From: a virus
Lineage: Duplodnaviria > Caudoviricetes
Length of the DNA: 64,000 nucleotides
IMG/VR virus record: IMGVR_UViG_3300028591_005933
Coordinates: 1,471-65,470 of that record
Strand: one strand, 5' to 3'
A program made the translations under genes and the position numbers. Of the stretch, positions 11,447-32,773 are shown piece by piece. The notes under the pieces are model-generated. The model saw only the letters and a program-made list of their open reading frames with translations, was not told the DNA's origin and did not search any database. Every line of letters starts with the position of its first letter. Within the stretch, counting starts at the first letter, position 1.

Positions 11447-12172
11447 TTAACCCCCATAACTCATTTGTAATTTGACATCACTTGCTGTTTGTTTTCTACC
11501 AACTTGAGCTAAAATATATTCAACTCCATTAAGTTCTTCAGTTTTTAATTCATATGGAGTAACTGTAAAATTATTATATGTTATATTTATTTTATTAATA
11601 TCTGTTGCTATTACGCCTATTACAATATATTTTCCATCAGAACAATCAAAACTATATGGTTTAGCTGTATCATATAAAGCAATAACATTAAGATCTGCTA
11701 AAGAAACATTATCAATTTCTTCGATTGTTCCTGCATAAATATAAGTTTTAATTTCTGGTGTAGGAGTTGGAGTAGGTTCATCTCCACCTTCACCTCCAAT
11801 AATTTCTTGAATATCTGTATATGGATCTTCTTTACTTCCACCAACTTCAACCCAATTTTCTTCTGTTTGATAAACATAATTACCTAAATCACTAGATGTA
11901 TATTGATAAGCTACCCAATTATTTGAAGTACCCTCCGCAAAAGTAATATATTGACCAGATACCCTATCTTTTTCTTGAGTATTTTGAGTAAGATAAGTAA
12001 TAGCTTCTTTTAAATTATTAAAAGGAGCGTGCTGGCCAAAAGCCGTTGAAACATTATAAAGCCATTCAGGGTGTGAACTGCTAGGCGCCGGCTCACTACC
12101 ACCGCTTCCATTGCCACCTCCGAATAATTTACTTAAGCGCAAGGAATTTATTTCAATTACAGTATCAGTCAT
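11447..12172 (-). CDS. Probable structural protein with Gly- and Pro/Thr-rich linkers
   Basis: First gene of the tail operon; GGGNGSGG and EPTPTPTPE linkers. Confidence 0.5.
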   Translation of the reverse strand: MTDTVIEINSLRLSKLFGGGNGSGGSEPAPSSSHPEWLYNVSTAFGQHAPFNNLKEAITYLTQNTQEKDRVSGQYITFAEGTSNNWVAYQYTSSDLGNYVYQTEENWVEVGGSKEDPYTDIQEIIGGEGGDEPTPTPTPEIKTYIYAGTIEEIDNVSLADLNVIALYDTAKPYSFDCSDGKYIVIGVIATDINKINITYNNFTVTPYELKTEELNGVEYILAQVGRKQTASDVKLQMSYGG

Positions 12173-12178
12173 ATCAAA

Positions 12179-12196
12179 TAGAACTTTTTTGTTCTA
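12179..12196. promoter_or_regulatory. Back-to-back GTTCTA motifs (TAGAAC-N6-GTTCTA) between divergent genes
   Basis: Exact inverted repeat tagaac-tttttt-gttcta between 11447-12172 (minus) and 12239-12751 (plus). Confidence 0.55.
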
Positions 12197-12238: not shown

Positions 12239-12751
12239 GTGAGTTATAGATTATTACCAAAACAAGTTTATTTAACTAAGCAAACCAACTTGGGTATTAT
12301 GGTATTCCAACCAGTAAATGGTGATACTCAACTCTATGGGTCTAATGTTGTAAAATATCATGTAAATAAATTAACAGGTAAAAAAACATTAATCAAACCT
12401 AAATTTGAGGAATTAATTAAAATTACAGATGACTTATTACCTGTTAATACAGTTCATCCAATGAATAATCTTACTACTTGGATTGCATTTGATTCTGAAG
12501 CAGAAAATGCTGAAATTTGGTGTACTCATGGTATTGATGAATCAGTTACTCCTACCTTTGTATCTAAAGACGGAAGAGTTGGAGATAAAAAAGAAAAGGA
12601 ATTACTTTTAGAAGAAGAAGCATTACGTCAAAAAGCTTGGGAATTAGAATTAGAAAAGGAAAGAAATCAAATCGAAGATCCAAAATATCCTTTAAAACGT
12701 GAAGATATAAGAAATTATATCGATGAAGATGGTAATATAGTTGATGATTAA
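12239..12751 (+). CDS. Hypothetical protein
   Basis: 170-aa ORF, GTG start with GGAG RBS, GTTCTA motif upstream, terminator downstream. Confidence 0.7.
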   Translation: MSYRLLPKQVYLTKQTNLGIMVFQPVNGDTQLYGSNVVKYHVNKLTGKKTLIKPKFEELIKITDDLLPVNTVHPMNNLTTWIAFDSEAENAEIWCTHGIDESVTPTFVSKDGRVGDKKEKELLLEEEALRQKAWELELEKERNQIEDPKYPLKREDIRNYIDEDGNIVDD

Positions 12752-12774
12752 TTTTACAATCCATTATTAAAAAT

Positions 12775-12799
12775 AAAGTGCCATTTTAGGCACTTTTTT
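12775..12799 (+). terminator. Intrinsic terminator (possibly bidirectional)
   Basis: AAAGTGCC-ATTTTA-GGCACTTT followed by a T run, 24 nt after the stop of 12239-12751. Confidence 0.75.
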
Positions 12800-12804
12800 A
12801 ATAT

Positions 12805-12873
12805 AAAAAAGGATGCTCAGGGGAAAGGAGGGGAAACCTTAAGCATCCTTATCGTATTCATATGAATTGCGAC
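12805..12873 (-). ncRNA. Candidate small RNA: two hairpins, 3' hairpin with C/U-rich anti-SD loop and U tail
   Basis: GTTCTA motif at 12880-12885 points into it with no ORF downstream; stem AAGGAUGCUUAAG/CUGAGCAUCCUU has a U-G wobble only on the minus strand; loop GUUUCCCCUCCUUUCCC. Confidence 0.45.
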
Positions 12874-12893
12874 ATATATTAGAACTTTTACAT

Positions 12894-13445
12894 TTATTTT
12901 TTATTATATTGCCAAAATTCTAAATGAATATCTTCATCTAATAAAGCTTCTTCTAATTTAGCATCCCATTTTTCATAATTTAAATATTCATTAATATTAA
13001 ATGGAAATTTTATATAATCAAAATCATCTTCTAAAACACAAGATACTTTTGTAATATAGGCGCAATCAATTAAGTCTTTTTCTAAGCAATACTTATAAAT
13101 TGAAGCTCCTCCACAAATAAATACTTCATCAAAATTACCACAAAAATCTAAAGCATTTTCAACAGAAGTGGCCTCTACCCAACCTCTCCATTTATTATCT
13201 TTTCTATCACAAATAGCATTAACTGCAAATACTTTTGATTCACTATTATCTAATACTATATTTAATCTATTTGGTAACGGATAATTTGGTAATCCAAAAA
13301 ACGTTGTTGATCCAAAAATAACTGGTTTACCGGAAGTTAATTTTTTAAAATGATTTAAGTCAACTTTAGAATGCCAAGCCAATTTATTTTTATATCCAAT
13401 TACATTATCTGGACCAATTGCAACAATCATATTAACTTTAGTCAT
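12894..13445 (-). CDS. folA: Dihydrofolate reductase
   Basis: IVAIGPDNVIGYKNKLAWHSKVDLNHFKKLT..PVIFGSTTF..LPNRLNIVL and VFICGGASIY are canonical DHFR motifs. Confidence 0.95.
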   Translation of the reverse strand: MTKVNMIVAIGPDNVIGYKNKLAWHSKVDLNHFKKLTSGKPVIFGSTTFFGLPNYPLPNRLNIVLDNSESKVFAVNAICDRKDNKWRGWVEATSVENALDFCGNFDEVFICGGASIYKYCLEKDLIDCAYITKVSCVLEDDFDYIKFPFNINEYLNYEKWDAKLEEALLDEDIHLEFWQYNKK

Positions 13446-13456
13446 AATATCCTCCT

Positions 13457-14524
13457 TTAAATATAATCATCGTCATCATTAATTTCATAATCAAGCTCAC
13501 CCCTTTTATGAAAAATTAAATCTCTATAAGTCATATCAGTTGTTTTTTTCTTTTTTTGAAAATTATATTTAACTGGTTTTACTTTTTTATATTCTAGTAA
13601 CTGTGTATTTACTCTTGAATTACTTATATTATATCTTGATTTATATGTTGTTGATAAACCTTTAATAAAAGTTAATATTTTAGGTGAATATAAACCAGCC
13701 TTATATAAAAATATTTTACCTAACATAACAGTTTTTTTATCAAATCCAGCAGTATCTTGCTTATCATAAAAACTTTCTATTTTATCATAGCAATTTAAAG
13801 CATCTGGATATTGTTTAGCAATAAATAAAGCTTTTTGTAAAATACTTTTTACATTAGCTTCACTGTCCATATAATCTCCATCTTTTTCAGCAGGAATAAC
13901 ATCAGCTAATGTCTTATCATTATCATTAACATCTAACTTATTATCTAATGAAATTTTAAATATAGAAGAACCTTCGTTTTGTGTAGCCAAAAACGCTTTA
14001 TGTTTTCTATCTCCAGTTATACTCATTCTACAGATATAAATAAATTCTTTATATAACACTGGGTTAAAAGTAACTGTTGATGCTTTTTTTAATTTTTCTG
14101 GATAAAACCATCTTGTGCGATAAAAATCACAAATTTTACAAAACTTAGCCCAAAATTCAGCAGACCAATCCTCACTTGATCCATCTGAATTACTCATTTT
14201 AAATCCATTAAATTCAATATATCCTTTTAAATATCTAGCTATAGATTCTGTAACTCTATTAAATCTTTCTGGAGTAGCGTTAGCAATTGGTTGATTATTA
14301 ATTAAATATTTAATTTGTTCATCCAAAGTTGGATATTCTTTCATTTTTTCTATAACTTCTGCTAATTCGTCATGAGTTAAGCAAGTATATATTAATAAAT
14401 TTTCATCATTTTTACAAGCATTTAGAAATTTTTGATAATCTTTATAATCAGATTCTATAAATTTTTTAAAATTTTGTTTACGATTTGTTCTTTTTGATAT
14501 TTTAGCCTTTTTTATTTCAGCCAT
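13457..14524 (-). CDS. Hypothetical protein, possibly a divergent phage sigma factor
   Basis: ISLDNKLDVNDNDKTLADVIP resembles sigma-70 region 3.2; EDWSAEFWAKFCKICDFY and YKEFIYICRMSI weakly resemble region 2; GGAG RBS. Confidence 0.4.
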   Translation of the reverse strand: MAEIKKAKISKRTNRKQNFKKFIESDYKDYQKFLNACKNDENLLIYTCLTHDELAEVIEKMKEYPTLDEQIKYLINNQPIANATPERFNRVTESIARYLKGYIEFNGFKMSNSDGSSEDWSAEFWAKFCKICDFYRTRWFYPEKLKKASTVTFNPVLYKEFIYICRMSITGDRKHKAFLATQNEGSSIFKISLDNKLDVNDNDKTLADVIPAEKDGDYMDSEANVKSILQKALFIAKQYPDALNCYDKIESFYDKQDTAGFDKKTVMLGKIFLYKAGLYSPKILTFIKGLSTTYKSRYNISNSRVNTQLLEYKKVKPVKYNFQKKKKTTDMTYRDLIFHKRGELDYEINDDDDYI

Positions 14525-15540: not shown

Positions 15541-15573
15541 AAAAGGAGAACCTAAGTTTAAATTAAGTTCTCC
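15541..15573 (-). terminator. Terminator-like hairpin after the SSB gene
   Basis: Minus RNA GGAGAACUUAA-UUUAAAC-UUAGGUUCUCC-UUUU with a G-U pair on this strand. Confidence 0.65.
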
Positions 15574-15597
15574 TCCCCTCCACTACATAATTAAAAG

Positions 15598-16410: not shown

Positions 16411-16535
16411 TGTATTTATCCTTAAAATTATGTAGTTTAGTTATGTTTTATACAGTTTCATATCTGTCATATAAAATAGAAGTTATTTGATAAAATATTT
16501 CTAATAAAATAATTTTCCAAACAGTGTATATAGAA

Positions 16536-17576
16536 CTATGCCTTACTTCTTTCTATTAAATTTTCACCAACTTTAATTAATTCTTTTTTATTTTCTTCAG
16601 TATTTTCAGATTTTTCAACAAAATACTTTATAACATCAATATCATCTTTTAATTTTATTTCAGTTTCATCTATTTTTTTATTAAATATTAAACGCATAAC
16701 ATCTACATGAAAATCTGAATGTTTAAAAGTTTTTAATTTTTCTTTTAAATCATCTGTATATAATAAATCAGTAGATAATTCAACCTTAACATAATTATCT
16801 GGAGAAAGTTTAAAAAGATCATTAATATTATCATCAGTAAAACTTAACCAATCAGGACAATTAAAACTTTCACGAGAAACTTTATTAGTTTCTGTATCAT
16901 ATATAATTATATTATTTCTTGCTATTCCTTGATCTTTAAAAGATAATCTTTGTGTTGAACCTGTTATTTGAATATTTTTTGCAACAGATCCACCGCAGTG
17001 ATAGTGTCCTTGTAAAGTCATTTTAAATTTCTTTAACAAATCTATACTTACACCTTTTTCGCTTTGTAAACCACTAGCAAAAGTTATTCCTTTTAATTCT
17101 GCGTGTGAAAATATAATTTTATGATCTTTATTTTTAATATTATTTAAAAAATCTTCAGCAAATTGATCATTAATACAATAAGGTAAATATATAAAATCAT
17201 CTACTTCTGTTGGTTGATCATAAACTGTTACATTATTCCAATACTTAAATGGCATTAATTTATGTGAATATTGATTATTTAAATGTCCACTAATATCATG
17301 ATTGCCAACTAACATATCTAATTGACATACATCAGAAATTTTTTTTATAAATTCTGTAACTGCTGTTAATACCTGACAAGAAATATTATCTCCAACTGGA
17401 CCAAATAAATCACCAAGAAAAACAATTTTATCTATTTGTTTGGTTTTACATAAATTAATAATTACATCAGCACATTGTAAATGCTCTAATTCTCTAATAG
17501 TATATCCTTGTGGAGTAATTGTTGAAAATCTATGTGTATGATGAAAATGTATATCTCCAAAAGCTAATATTTTCAT
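16536..17576 (-). CDS. sbcD: Mre11/SbcD-like nuclease (T4 gp47-like)
   Basis: GDIHF, FLGDLF, VGNHD, FSHAE, GHYH metallophosphoesterase motifs; overlaps the gp46-like gene. Confidence 0.9.
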   Translation of the reverse strand: MKILAFGDIHFHHTHRFSTITPQGYTIRELEHLQCADVIINLCKTKQIDKIVFLGDLFGPVGDNISCQVLTAVTEFIKKISDVCQLDMLVGNHDISGHLNNQYSHKLMPFKYWNNVTVYDQPTEVDDFIYLPYCINDQFAEDFLNNIKNKDHKIIFSHAELKGITFASGLQSEKGVSIDLLKKFKMTLQGHYHCGGSVAKNIQITGSTQRLSFKDQGIARNNIIIYDTETNKVSRESFNCPDWLSFTDDNINDLFKLSPDNYVKVELSTDLLYTDDLKEKLKTFKHSDFHVDVMRLIFNKKIDETEIKLKDDIDVIKYFVEKSENTEENKKELIKVGENLIERSKA

Positions 17577-29868: not shown

Positions 29869-31518
29869 ATGAGTAAGTCAGCTTGTTTTGGTAAAGATAC
29901 ACAAGATAATTTAGTAAAAGGTTTGAATTTAGTAGCAGATGCTGTAAAATCTACTTTGGGTCCTTGTGGTAATACTGTAGTTATTGCAAGAGAAGATAAA
30001 TTGCCAGTTATTACTAAAGATGGTGTTTCTGTTGCAAAAGAAATTGCACCAAAAGATGAAAAAATTAAATTAGGTGCAGATTTAGCTATTTCTGTAGCTC
30101 AAAAACAAATGGATGCTGTTGGTGATGGTACTACGACAGCTACTGTTTTAGCTCAGGCTATTGTAAATACAGGTATTCGTCAAATTGAATTAAGTGAACA
30201 TACAGTAAATCGTACATCTTTTCGTAAAGGTATAGAAAAAGCAAGAGATTATGTAATTTCTAAACTCGAAGAAATGAGTACCCCAATTAAATCTAATGAT
30301 GAATTAATTAATATTGCTACGGTTTCTGCTAACGGAGATGAACTTTTAGGAAAAACAATCGCCGAGGCTTATGAAAAGGTTGGTAAAGCTGGTGTAGTTT
30401 TAGTTGAGGAAACAAAAGATCGTACAATTAGATTAGATTTTAAAGAAGGTATGACATTTAATAAAGGTTGGACTTCTCAATATTTTGTAAATAATCATGA
30501 AAATCAAACTGTTGAATTTGATAGACCTAAAATTTTATTATGTAATTCAAAAATATCAAATTTTACTACATTGGCTAATATTATACAAGATACTTTGCAA
30601 GCAGAACAACCTTTAGTTATTTTTGCTGAAAGTTTTGATACGAGTGTTACTCAAGCTCTAGCTCTTAATATTATGCGCTCTGGTGGTAGATTTAAGATTG
30701 CTTGTGTTGAAGCTCCTGGATATGGTGAAAGAAGACTGGATATTTTAAGAGATATTGCATGTTATGTTGGGGGAAACGTTGCAGATGATCCTCTTGGAAT
30801 TAAATATGAAACTATGTCTTCTGCAGATTTTGGTTCTTGTGAAAAAATTATAATTAAGAAAGATGAAACTATTATACGTGGTGGATTTGGGGAACAAGAT
30901 CAAATAAGTGAAAGAATTAAAGCTATTAATGGTTTGATTGGAGCTTTAAAAGAAAATGATACTTATGAAAGAGAACAACTTGGTAAGCGTTTAGCTTCTT
31001 TAACTACTGGTGTAGCTGTTATTCAGGTTGGAGGTTCTTCTGAAGAGGAAATTAAGGAATTACGTGATCGTTTAGATGATAGTACTTGGGCTGTTAAAGC
31101 AGCTTTAGAAGAGGGTTATTTACCTGGTGCTGGTAATACTTTATTATATTTATCAGAAAAAGTTGAATCAGAAGTAAAAACTACAAATTCTAATGAGGCT
31201 TTAGGAGTTAAAGTATTTGCAAATGCTTTAAAAGCACCATTTAAGACAATTGTTGATAATGCTGGTTTACCTGTTGAATTAGTTACACAAGAGGTTTTAA
31301 GTAAAAACGATTATAATATCGGTTATGATGCTAAAAATTTAAAGGTTTGTAATTTAATTGAAGCAGGTATTCTTGATCCAACAAAAGTTGTAAAAGGTAC
31401 TGTTTATGCTGCTTCTTCTATTGCAGCTGTAACTTTAACAAGTAATGTTATGATTACAGTTGATCCTATAGAAAATAAAGGTTTGTCATTAAATATGATG
31501 ACAGATCCTATGATGTAA
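29869..31518 (+). CDS. groEL: Chaperonin GroEL (phage-encoded)
   Basis: TLGPCG, ITKDGVSVAKEI, GDGTTTATVLA, EAPGYGERR, GILDPTKV. Confidence 0.97.
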   Translation: MSKSACFGKDTQDNLVKGLNLVADAVKSTLGPCGNTVVIAREDKLPVITKDGVSVAKEIAPKDEKIKLGADLAISVAQKQMDAVGDGTTTATVLAQAIVNTGIRQIELSEHTVNRTSFRKGIEKARDYVISKLEEMSTPIKSNDELINIATVSANGDELLGKTIAEAYEKVGKAGVVLVEETKDRTIRLDFKEGMTFNKGWTSQYFVNNHENQTVEFDRPKILLCNSKISNFTTLANIIQDTLQAEQPLVIFAESFDTSVTQALALNIMRSGGRFKIACVEAPGYGERRLDILRDIACYVGGNVADDPLGIKYETMSSADFGSCEKIIIKKDETIIRGGFGEQDQISERIKAINGLIGALKENDTYEREQLGKRLASLTTGVAVIQVGGSSEEEIKELRDRLDDSTWAVKAALEEGYLPGAGNTLLYLSEKVESEVKTTNSNEALGVKVFANALKAPFKTIVDNAGLPVELVTQEVLSKNDYNIGYDAKNLKVCNLIEAGILDPTKVVKGTVYAASSIAAVTLTSNVMITVDPIENKGLSLNMMTDPMM

Positions 31519-31618: not shown

Positions 31619-32773
31619 ATGGCAAAACAAGTTAATTCTTCAAGATTAGAAGAGATAGATTTTTCTAGATTTAATTTACGTGACGCATATATTACAGATC
31701 AAGCTGAATATGTTGCTGCTTTACGTGACGAGGCTTTATTCAGTAATTATGGTATTACTGTTATGGTACGTATTCCAAGCATAGATTCTAATTATTTGTT
31801 TGAGAATAATGTTGATGAATATTCTAATTTTGTAGATATTACTTGGATGGATACTACAGAAACTGTTATACCTCTTTTTAAAGAATATCGCCAAAATGTT
31901 TCTGAAGATGGAATGACAGCAGATGGTACTACTGGTATATATTCATTAGATGTTATTTTACCTACAAAGTTACATTTACCAAAAAATAGCAGAATTATTT
32001 TTAATGAATATAATTCTCGTGAAGAAAAAATAGCTAGGGAATGGGTTGTACTTAGTACTGAAATGAAACAAATAAGTAATAGTAAAACTTATTCTAGAAT
32101 TGCCCATTGTGTTCCAGCAAGAAAAGAAACTTGGAATAATTCTGATACTCAAATTAGTACAATTTGGTTTGATTATAAAGTACCAGAAAAAGAAAAGATA
32201 ACAAAAGAAAGATTAGCTGCTCAAGGCATTATTTGGTTTATTAAAGCTGGTATAGATGCTTCAAAAGTAAGACATACTATTGTTGATACTATAGATGAAA
32301 ATATTATTATTGATCCAGAATATAATGAATCTACAAATGTATTATATTACTATGATACAAGAGATATTAATATTATAGAGCCTGGAGTAGGGTTAGAAAT
32401 AGATAATAGTTATACTTTAACAGATGAAGAAGGAAATGTTATTTTAATTCAAACTGAGGAAAATGGATTAAAAGATACTCCACTTATTTTAACTGTAAAA
32501 GATATTGATTATGAGACAGGGGCTTTAAAAGAATATACTTTAAATCTAAGAAAAGGATATACAGATTTTGGTGAGGACGGTAAAATTGTATCTTTTGGTC
32601 CAATAAATAATTATAAAGCTAAAATTAAATTAGCATCTGGTCCTTGGAATGGTGATATTTATCATGAAGAAATTTATGATAAGATAGAAATAGAAAATCC
32701 TAAGTATATAGTACCTAAGCAATTAGATGCAGTATTTATTTCAAAGAAGATCGCAGTTTCAGTTCTAAATTAA
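31619..32773 (+). CDS. Hypothetical virion protein (possible head-tail connector)
   Basis: First gene after the GTTCTA motif at 31582 in the morphogenesis block; no recognised motif. Confidence 0.5.
   Translation: MAKQVNSSRLEEIDFSRFNLRDAYITDQAEYVAALRDEALFSNYGITVMVRIPSIDSNYLFENNVDEYSNFVDITWMDTTETVIPLFKEYRQNVSEDGMTADGTTGIYSLDVILPTKLHLPKNSRIIFNEYNSREEKIAREWVVLSTEMKQISNSKTYSRIAHCVPARKETWNNSDTQISTIWFDYKVPEKEKITKERLAAQGIIWFIKAGIDASKVRHTIVDTIDENIIIDPEYNESTNVLYYYDTRDINIIEPGVGLEIDNSYTLTDEEGNVILIQTEENGLKDTPLILTVKDIDYETGALKEYTLNLRKGYTDFGEDGKIVSFGPINNYKAKIKLASGPWNGDIYHEEIYDKIEIENPKYIVPKQLDAVFISKKIAVSVLN

Follow-up and report, generated by a model that had tools for sequence, protein, structure and literature searches.

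A candidate small RNA gene with an anti-Shine-Dalgarno loop behind the DHFR gene of uncultured jumbo phages

The DNA analysed here (the window, 64,000 nt, ~25% GC) makes up the greater part of a 65-kb IMG/VR virus fragment, the record of which has a CheckV completeness of 23%. Its few recognisable genes (SbcCD, GroEL, head protease and DHFR) were all phage-like, and no tRNA was found in the window. The closest long relative of the window was a 227-kb contig rated 95% complete, indicating a jumbo phage. The source clade comprises uncultured phages of jumbo size (~230 kb) from the guts of ruminants, and sheep and bovine gut samples contain this DNA. The look-alikes of the GroEL protein were viral or mixed and gave no clue to the host, and a cultured-phage collection contained no DNA match to the region of the element described below.

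As shown in Table 1, the DHFR gene is followed on the same strand by a promoter-like GTTCTA hexamer, two predicted hairpins and a U-tract. The initial annotation had noticed here a GTTCTA motif that had no ORF downstream and was followed by two hairpins and a U tail on the minus strand; every one of its sequence statements was correct, and the fold was confirmed. No plausible ORF was found on the minus strand downstream of this GTTCTA: the sole ORF there (12764–12564, 66 aa) lies past two terminators and antisense to a convergent plus-strand gene (12239–12751). The latter gene is ended by the separate bidirectional terminator, which was absent from relatives, whose downstream genes differ. The predicted 76-nt RNA had a folding energy of -20.0 kcal/mol (z = -4.7 against dinucleotide shuffles). 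Hairpin 2 was the only hairpin within the window that carried CCUCC in a loop outside coding sequence, and its loop includes the 10-mer CCCCTCCTTT (12833–12824, minus strand). A 10-mer of this type was no rarer than chance in 64 kb, since 65 of 100 shuffles contained at least one match with up to one mismatch. The significance of the element derives from its fold and above all from its conservation, not from the rarity of the 10-mer.

Table 1. Position of the element behind the DHFR gene in the window, and of hairpins bearing the same loop in other viral contigs
Sequence	Feature	Position	Strand	Remarks
Window	DHFR gene	12894–13445	minus	PF00186, E = 1.8e-27; phrog_316; stop codon TAA at 12896–12894; Shine-Dalgarno sequence AAAGGAGG
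Window	GTTCTA promoter-like hexamer	12880–12885	minus	context AAAAGTTCTAATATAT; 8 nt past the DHFR stop, 6 nt ahead of the conserved G
Window	Hairpin 1, 5'-terminal stem-loop	12851–12873	minus	predicted fold; G12873 is the predicted first transcribed base
Window	Hairpin 2	12809–12850	minus	12–13-bp stem that includes a conserved U.G wobble and a single bulged A; 14-nt loop
Window	Unpaired loop UUUCCCCUCCUUUC	12823–12836	minus	core CCUCCUUU at 12824–12831
Window	U6 tract, intrinsic-terminator tail	12805–12810	minus	directly 3' of hairpin 2
Window	Separate bidirectional terminator hairpin	12775–12796	both	outside the RNA; from the terminator scan
L017	Hairpin with the same loop	7398–7468	minus	viral contig related to L018; after major head gene; U-tract present
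L018	Hairpin with the same loop	3886–3956		viral contig related to L017; after major head gene; U-tract present
L014	Hairpin with the same loop	6445–6505		after major head gene of a different family
L012	Hairpin with the same loop	11775–11835	minus	after holin
L010	Hairpin with the same loop	2572–2640	minus	40% GC contig
L008	Hairpin with the same loop	5695–5752		60% GC lineage

Intrinsic terminator loops are typically 3–8 nt long and free to vary. With its 12–13-bp stem and U6, hairpin 2 has the stem and U-tract of an intrinsic terminator but not the short, unconstrained loop (about 3–8 nt), because its loop is of 14 nt and has a core that was invariant in 10 relatives. The terminator scan admits loops of 3–8 nt only, so hairpin 2 was not listed by it. 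No terminator of the DHFR operon was present ahead of hairpin 2, which is co-directional with the gene, and this arrangement was common to all relatives. By its position hairpin 2 is therefore the only terminator for the DHFR operon, indicating that the DHFR mRNA ends in the element as well. To this extent an alternative raised in the initial annotation, that the hairpin is only the DHFR terminator, fits; the "only" is disfavoured by the conserved promoter-like motif and the co-varying 5' hairpin described below. The roles of hairpin 2 as a terminator and as part of a small RNA (sRNA) are compatible, not exclusive.

Two further features were seen on the minus strand near the DHFR gene. A 355-aa gene (13457–14524) with no counterpart in Pfam or PHROG stands ahead of DHFR in all relatives, where its stop codon and the start of DHFR overlap; its product may be an enzyme of nucleotide metabolism, so far unrecognised, that is a partner of DHFR. 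Between a 270-aa gene and an HNH-like gene lies a 15-bp terminator-like hairpin (15541–15577), the 5' arm of which is the Shine-Dalgarno (SD)-like sequence GGGAGGAGAAC and which could mask a ribosome-binding site.

GTTCTA occurred 23 times in the window, and 15 of the 23 copies were found in the 5.8% of it that is free of ORFs of 100 aa or more (P = 9e-14). These 15 intergenic copies were all co-oriented with a gene start 20–75 nt downstream, and the consensus was roughly aaaGTTCTAtatAataa, indicating from sequence that GTTCTA is a promoter-like motif under selection. A PWM of the flanks for a GTTCTA promoter was weak and only mirrored AT-richness. One copy (16531–16536) heads the operon containing DHFR, and others head structural genes and many other units; thus, the label "late", which the initial annotation had given to the RNA, does not follow. 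In relatives, the gene past the RNA unit had an additional GTTCTA of its own, indicating that the first copy serves the two hairpins only. At 12179–12196 of the window the palindrome TAGAAC-AAAAAA-GTTCTA, i.e. two back-to-back promoter-like sites, sits between the divergent genes 11447–12172 (minus strand) and 12239–12751 (plus strand); the minus-strand gene probably starts not at 12172 but at a later ATG behind GGAGGTGG. Another copy of GTTCTA stands directly ahead of a 384-aa gene (31619–32773, plus strand) that adjoins the phage GroEL gene (29869–31518), and this 384-aa gene has neither a recognisable SD (caagaguauaaaauAUG) nor a PHROG match.

Relatives of the phage were gathered through DHFR homologues: nine further distinct ones, 51–85% identical, and, as a set of ten distinct ones, 51–99% identical. 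A metagenome scan with DHFR returned only two contigs, both of which were already in the set. The order of parts in all relatives was stop codon, variable spacer, GTTCTA, 6–8 A/T-rich nt, G, hairpin 1, hairpin 2 and T-run, with the opening G of hairpin 1 retained in 9 of 10 relatives, and the T-run 3' of hairpin 2 likewise present in 9 of 10 (it was weaker in L154). The spacer between stop and GTTCTA varied in length (4–19 nt) and in sequence, and the genes downstream of the element fell into four or more different contexts. Neither GTTCTA(A) nor the loop core CCUCCUUU was changed in any of the 10 relatives, whereas stems, spacers and downstream genes drifted; the invariance of the core was read directly from the sequences, the variation in alignment columns being an aligner register shift in L144/L145. 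Around the core, the hairpin 2 loop ranged from 13 to 18 nt across the family and its flanks were variable (UUUCCCC-, UUUACC-, UUUUCC- and AUUUUUCC-); in L145 it reads ACCUCCUUU, which is 9 nt of the rRNA tail. Conservation of the loop in relatives had been named beforehand as a test that could refute the sRNA, and the outcome was an invariant CCUCCUUU in 10 relatives on stems that co-vary.

A single copy of the element was present per genome, and no second copy was found. The RNA model also gave a weak further match (25.5 bits, E = 0.014) at 83393–83465 (plus strand) of G001, the record of L002, which may be another GTTCTA-plus-hairpin unit. No conserved ORF was found in the element on either strand across the relatives. 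A small peptide was rejected, as the frames over the loop were inconsistent and were missing in three relatives. In Rfam 15, no relevant family matched window positions 12300–13400 at E up to 10, and there was no Rfam match at the motif in seven other loci.

Covariation across related phages, proposed as a check in the initial annotation, was evident in the model-guided family alignment, where 93.1% of cells were paired and 13 of 19 pairs had changed on both sides. The observed values were matched by 0 of 500 shuffles on four of five measures and by 2 of 500 for further pair types, and when the partners were slid by 1–3 columns as a control, only 34–66% of cells were paired. An alignment of 22 sequences gave 95.5% paired cells and compensatory changes in 17 of 19 pairs. 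Both hairpins contributed: compensatory changes were seen in five of the six core pairs of hairpin 1 (helix 2), and hairpin 2 (helix 3), with 97.5% of its cells paired, had double-sided changes in 8 of 12 pairs. There were 25 G.U cells, and 175 of 188 cells could pair on the DHFR-sense strand versus 153 of 188 on the opposite one. The U.G pair that the initial annotation had seen to form only on the minus strand was real, and the family conserved a U.G close to the top of stem 2. The element thus shows one of the traits of trans-acting sRNAs with an anti-SD or C-rich loop, an exposed, conserved seed on compensatory stems. Stem structure, strand and loop constraint are established by this comparison of sequences, whereas the promoter, a discrete transcript, its pairing and its targets are inferred.

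In low-GC Gram-positives, the 3' end of 16S rRNA reads ...GAUCACCUCCUUUCU. The loop core CCUCCUUU is identical to the core of the 16S anti-SD and is the exact complement of AAAGGAGG, in agreement with the initial annotation, which had the loop carry an exact SD complement. The phage itself uses SDs, with an SD core in 32 of 54 genes versus 5.7% of random windows, and the best canonical SD in the window is that of DHFR, AAAGGAGG. The predicted duplex of the loop with the DHFR SD had an energy of -12.4 kcal/mol in the window and of -11 to -17 kcal/mol in all relatives. Among relatives the DHFR SD varied (AAAGGAGG, AGAGGAG, AAGGGGAG and AGAGGGGA) without a matching change in the loop; because the loop does not follow the SD, specific autoregulation of DHFR was not taken as the main reading.

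Candidate extended targets, defined as complements of the loop with up to three mismatches, showed no excess over a reversed control in three phage genomes, indicating that pairing would rest on 5–9 nt and would suit almost any SD. The first genes behind GTTCTA were no different from the rest in SD strength and in loop duplex energies. As GTTCTA-led genes did not have weaker SDs, a simple switch from strong-SD early to weak-SD late genes was not visible. The suggestion that the RNA represses strong-SD host or early mRNAs or titrates a protein was not supported, with no extended target found in the three phage genomes and no contrast in SD strength seen between promoter classes.

Collections were scanned for the exact loop string, by which the identity of the loops found is partly an ascertainment effect and their placement in stems is not. 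Most of the 120 string matches in bacterial genomes had no stem and were chance matches or reversed ribosome-binding sites, but in a distinct minority the string was the loop of a 9–16-bp stem, the stem sequences being unrelated; a stem-borne string was also present in a Thermodesulfobacteriota MAG (L094). Unrelated viral contigs of 36–60% GC had the same loop of about 15–18 nt, GUUUCCCC(C)UCCUUUCC (Table 1), and the head genes that precede such hairpins belonged to phrog_2522 and phrog_212. Virus Rctr197k, a named relative of the L017/L018 capsid, had a different hairpin loop after its capsid gene, indicating that the instances in L017 and L018 are lineage-specific. The instances of the loop elsewhere are probably convergent. 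A broader reading, which we consider unlikely, is that of a loop-defined module, (G)GUUUCCCC(C)UCCUUUCC(C), which on any stem would be used by many unrelated phages after their most highly expressed genes (capsid, holin and nucleotide metabolism) and by some bacterial sRNAs. As a mimic of the 16S tail, it would either reprogram initiation globally by soaking up strong SDs, so that phage messages with weak SDs or none win the ribosomes, or act as a decoy for a factor or defence nuclease with specificity for the anti-SD tail of the ribosome.

The promoter-like motif, the hairpin at the predicted +1, the oversized, constrained loop of the terminator hairpin and the lack of a conserved ORF together make up the anatomy of a small-RNA gene, and the stand-alone gene pictured in the initial annotation is upheld in this respect. 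We put at about one half the probability that the element is a single-copy non-coding RNA gene of ~65–70 nt which is also the DHFR mRNA 3' end and whose loop pairs with SDs and occludes the 30S subunit. The RNA would start ~7 nt past GTTCTA, at the opening G of a protective 5' hairpin, and would end at the U-tract behind hairpin 2. Read-through from the DHFR operon would stop at hairpin 2 too, giving a shared 3' end like that of 3'UTR-type sRNAs with their own promoter. The active part would be the 13–18-nt loop of hairpin 2, always exposing CCUCCUUU, which would pair with purine-rich SDs of the AAAGGAGG type on mRNAs and so keep 30S subunits off. The outcome would be less translation of strong-SD messages, the most plausible targets being host mRNAs and the phage's own DHFR mRNA. 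Pairing with SDs and occlusion of 30S was chosen as the mechanism because CCUCCUUU is the anti-SD core, the phage uses SDs and the SD of DHFR is AAAGGAGG. On sequence comparison, the element is best read as a new phage RNA family that is backed by covariation, has a known type of seed and belongs to an uncultured jumbo-phage clade.

Another reading is that the element works in cis only, as a terminator or 3'-end stabiliser of the DHFR operon, its loop folding back on the ribosome-binding site of DHFR or a neighbour or setting termination or decay, with no transcript of its own and no targets in trans. The constant position at the DHFR 3' end although downstream genes vary, the U-tract and the lack of another terminator of the operon would fit this reading, as would the purine-rich DHFR SDs with their predicted loop duplexes of -11 to -17 kcal/mol in every relative. 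Likewise, in other phages the 3'UTRs of capsid or holin genes contain the loop, in some cases with no U-tract of its own (L012 and L014). However, the invariance of GTTCTA, and of a G seven bases on, amid drifting bases would be difficult to account for if no promoter were there, the 5' hairpin shows covariation, and changes in the DHFR SD are not mirrored in the loop, so that we regard a function purely in cis as somewhat unlikely.

The loop might also act without any mRNA pairing, as a decoy of the 16S 3' tail that titrates a protein or nuclease recognising the anti-SD tail (an initiation or 30S-maturation factor, a host toxin, or a defence nuclease cutting the 16S 3' end). The identity of the invariant core with the 16S anti-SD core, extended in L145 to 9 nt of the rRNA tail (ACCUCCUUU), is consistent with such titration; conservation reaches U/C flanks not obviously needed for SD pairing, and the three phage genomes yielded no specific mRNA target. 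The recurrence of the loop on unrelated stems in distant phages points the same way, but that the very same loop recurs is in part due to ascertainment, since the exact string was the query. With the flanks of the core varying within the family (UUUACC..., AUUUUUCC...), the GAUCA portion of the rRNA tail absent from the loop and no candidate binding protein identified, titration appears quite unlikely. A lack of any RNA function is very improbable. The element does mark the point at which gene order diverges among relatives, and its 10-mer is by itself no rarer than chance in the window, as might be seen with a DNA-level signal (a recombination boundary or a cruciform) or with a strong terminator whose loop is fortuitously pyrimidine-rich. 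Yet the compensatory changes with many G.U pairs favour one strand as RNA, an 8-nt loop core was invariant between phages whose DHFR proteins are only 51–85% identical, and one copy per genome argues against a repeated recombination site.

The closest functional analogues of the proposed SD-pairing RNA are ar14/NfeR1/CcsR, sX13, RNAIII, RsaE/RoxS and RsaA, and the phage element belongs to none of them. The alpha-r14 or "cuckoo" sRNAs of alphaproteobacteria (NfeR1 and CcsR1-4; RF02344) have loops that expose the anti-SD CCUCCUCCC (PMC4615179, PMC10746234). Like these, the phage RNA is a short stem-loop sRNA with a terminator at its end, in which the anti-SD loop is kept and the stems vary; unlike them, it has one anti-SD loop instead of two or three and no DUF1127 neighbour, and it shares neither sequence nor structure nor an Rfam match with them. 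In Staphylococcus aureus, the UCCC/CCCC loops of RNAIII (H7/H13/H14) and of RsaE/RoxS, including a terminator loop, pair with SDs and block initiation. RsaA is another sRNA whose C-rich loop pairs with the SD region (PMC3961350). The phage RNA resembles these Firmicutes sRNAs in its C-rich terminator loop and its low-GC, SD-using context, but is much smaller than RNAIII, RsaE and RsaA, has no Rfam match and carries a full 8-nt anti-SD string as opposed to a short UCCC seed.

As regards gene arrangement, DapZ is an sRNA derived from a 3'UTR and has its own promoter. The same is true of MicL (PMC4102768). In both, as proposed for the phage RNA, a promoter at or after the end of the upstream gene is combined with a terminator shared with the mRNA of that gene, but the phage promoter motif lies just past the stop codon and not within coding sequence. 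Compared with an ordinary intrinsic terminator, the element has the same stable stem followed at once by a U-tract at an operon end; it differs in the 13–18-nt loop with an invariant core and in the conserved promoter-like motif and second co-varying hairpin upstream. The phage-derived sRNAs treated in passages of a 2025 review (PMC12197685) include c4 of P1/P7, lambda OOP, DicF, AsxR/AgvB and 24B_1. Of these, c4 is likewise a phage-encoded regulatory RNA whose loops pair around a ribosome-binding site, but all of them are either antisense RNAs to particular genes or anti-sRNAs, and most come from temperate phages. The passages of the same review on "Shine-Dalgarno" or "ribosome binding" name no virulent or jumbo phage with a generic RNA of the anti-SD loop type.

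Few regulatory RNAs have been charted in virulent and jumbo phages, and little is known of how such phages bias the translation machinery of the host. The element adds to them a structured-RNA family that is backed by covariation and absent from Rfam, and a predicted RNA of ~70 nt found clade-wide, with the sequence by which the ribosome docks on mRNA as its sole invariant feature, is an easily synthesised object for probing possible phage RNA mimicry of the 16S tail. That this loop turns up on unrelated stems both in other phages and in a bacterial phylum suggests a device of wider use. The bacterial case is a two-hairpin unit of ~100–120 nt in eight genomes of Ca. Binatia (L059, 2728–2826, minus strand; L020, L035, L042, L065, L071, L078 and L114). 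The unit has a sigma-70-like promoter upstream (TTGCAA, 17 nt, TACAGT), a C-rich loop 1 (GGUCCUCCCCGUCC), a terminator hairpin with a loop 2 that matches the phage loop exactly, and then a U-run. Its predicted fold had an energy of -43.8 kcal/mol (z = -8). ar14 and sX13 are sRNAs with C-rich loops, and the unit gave sub-threshold Rfam matches to both of them, the best being to ar14 (32.8 bits versus a gathering threshold of 58.8). The Ca. Binatia unit is probably an undescribed bacterial family of anti-SD sRNAs.
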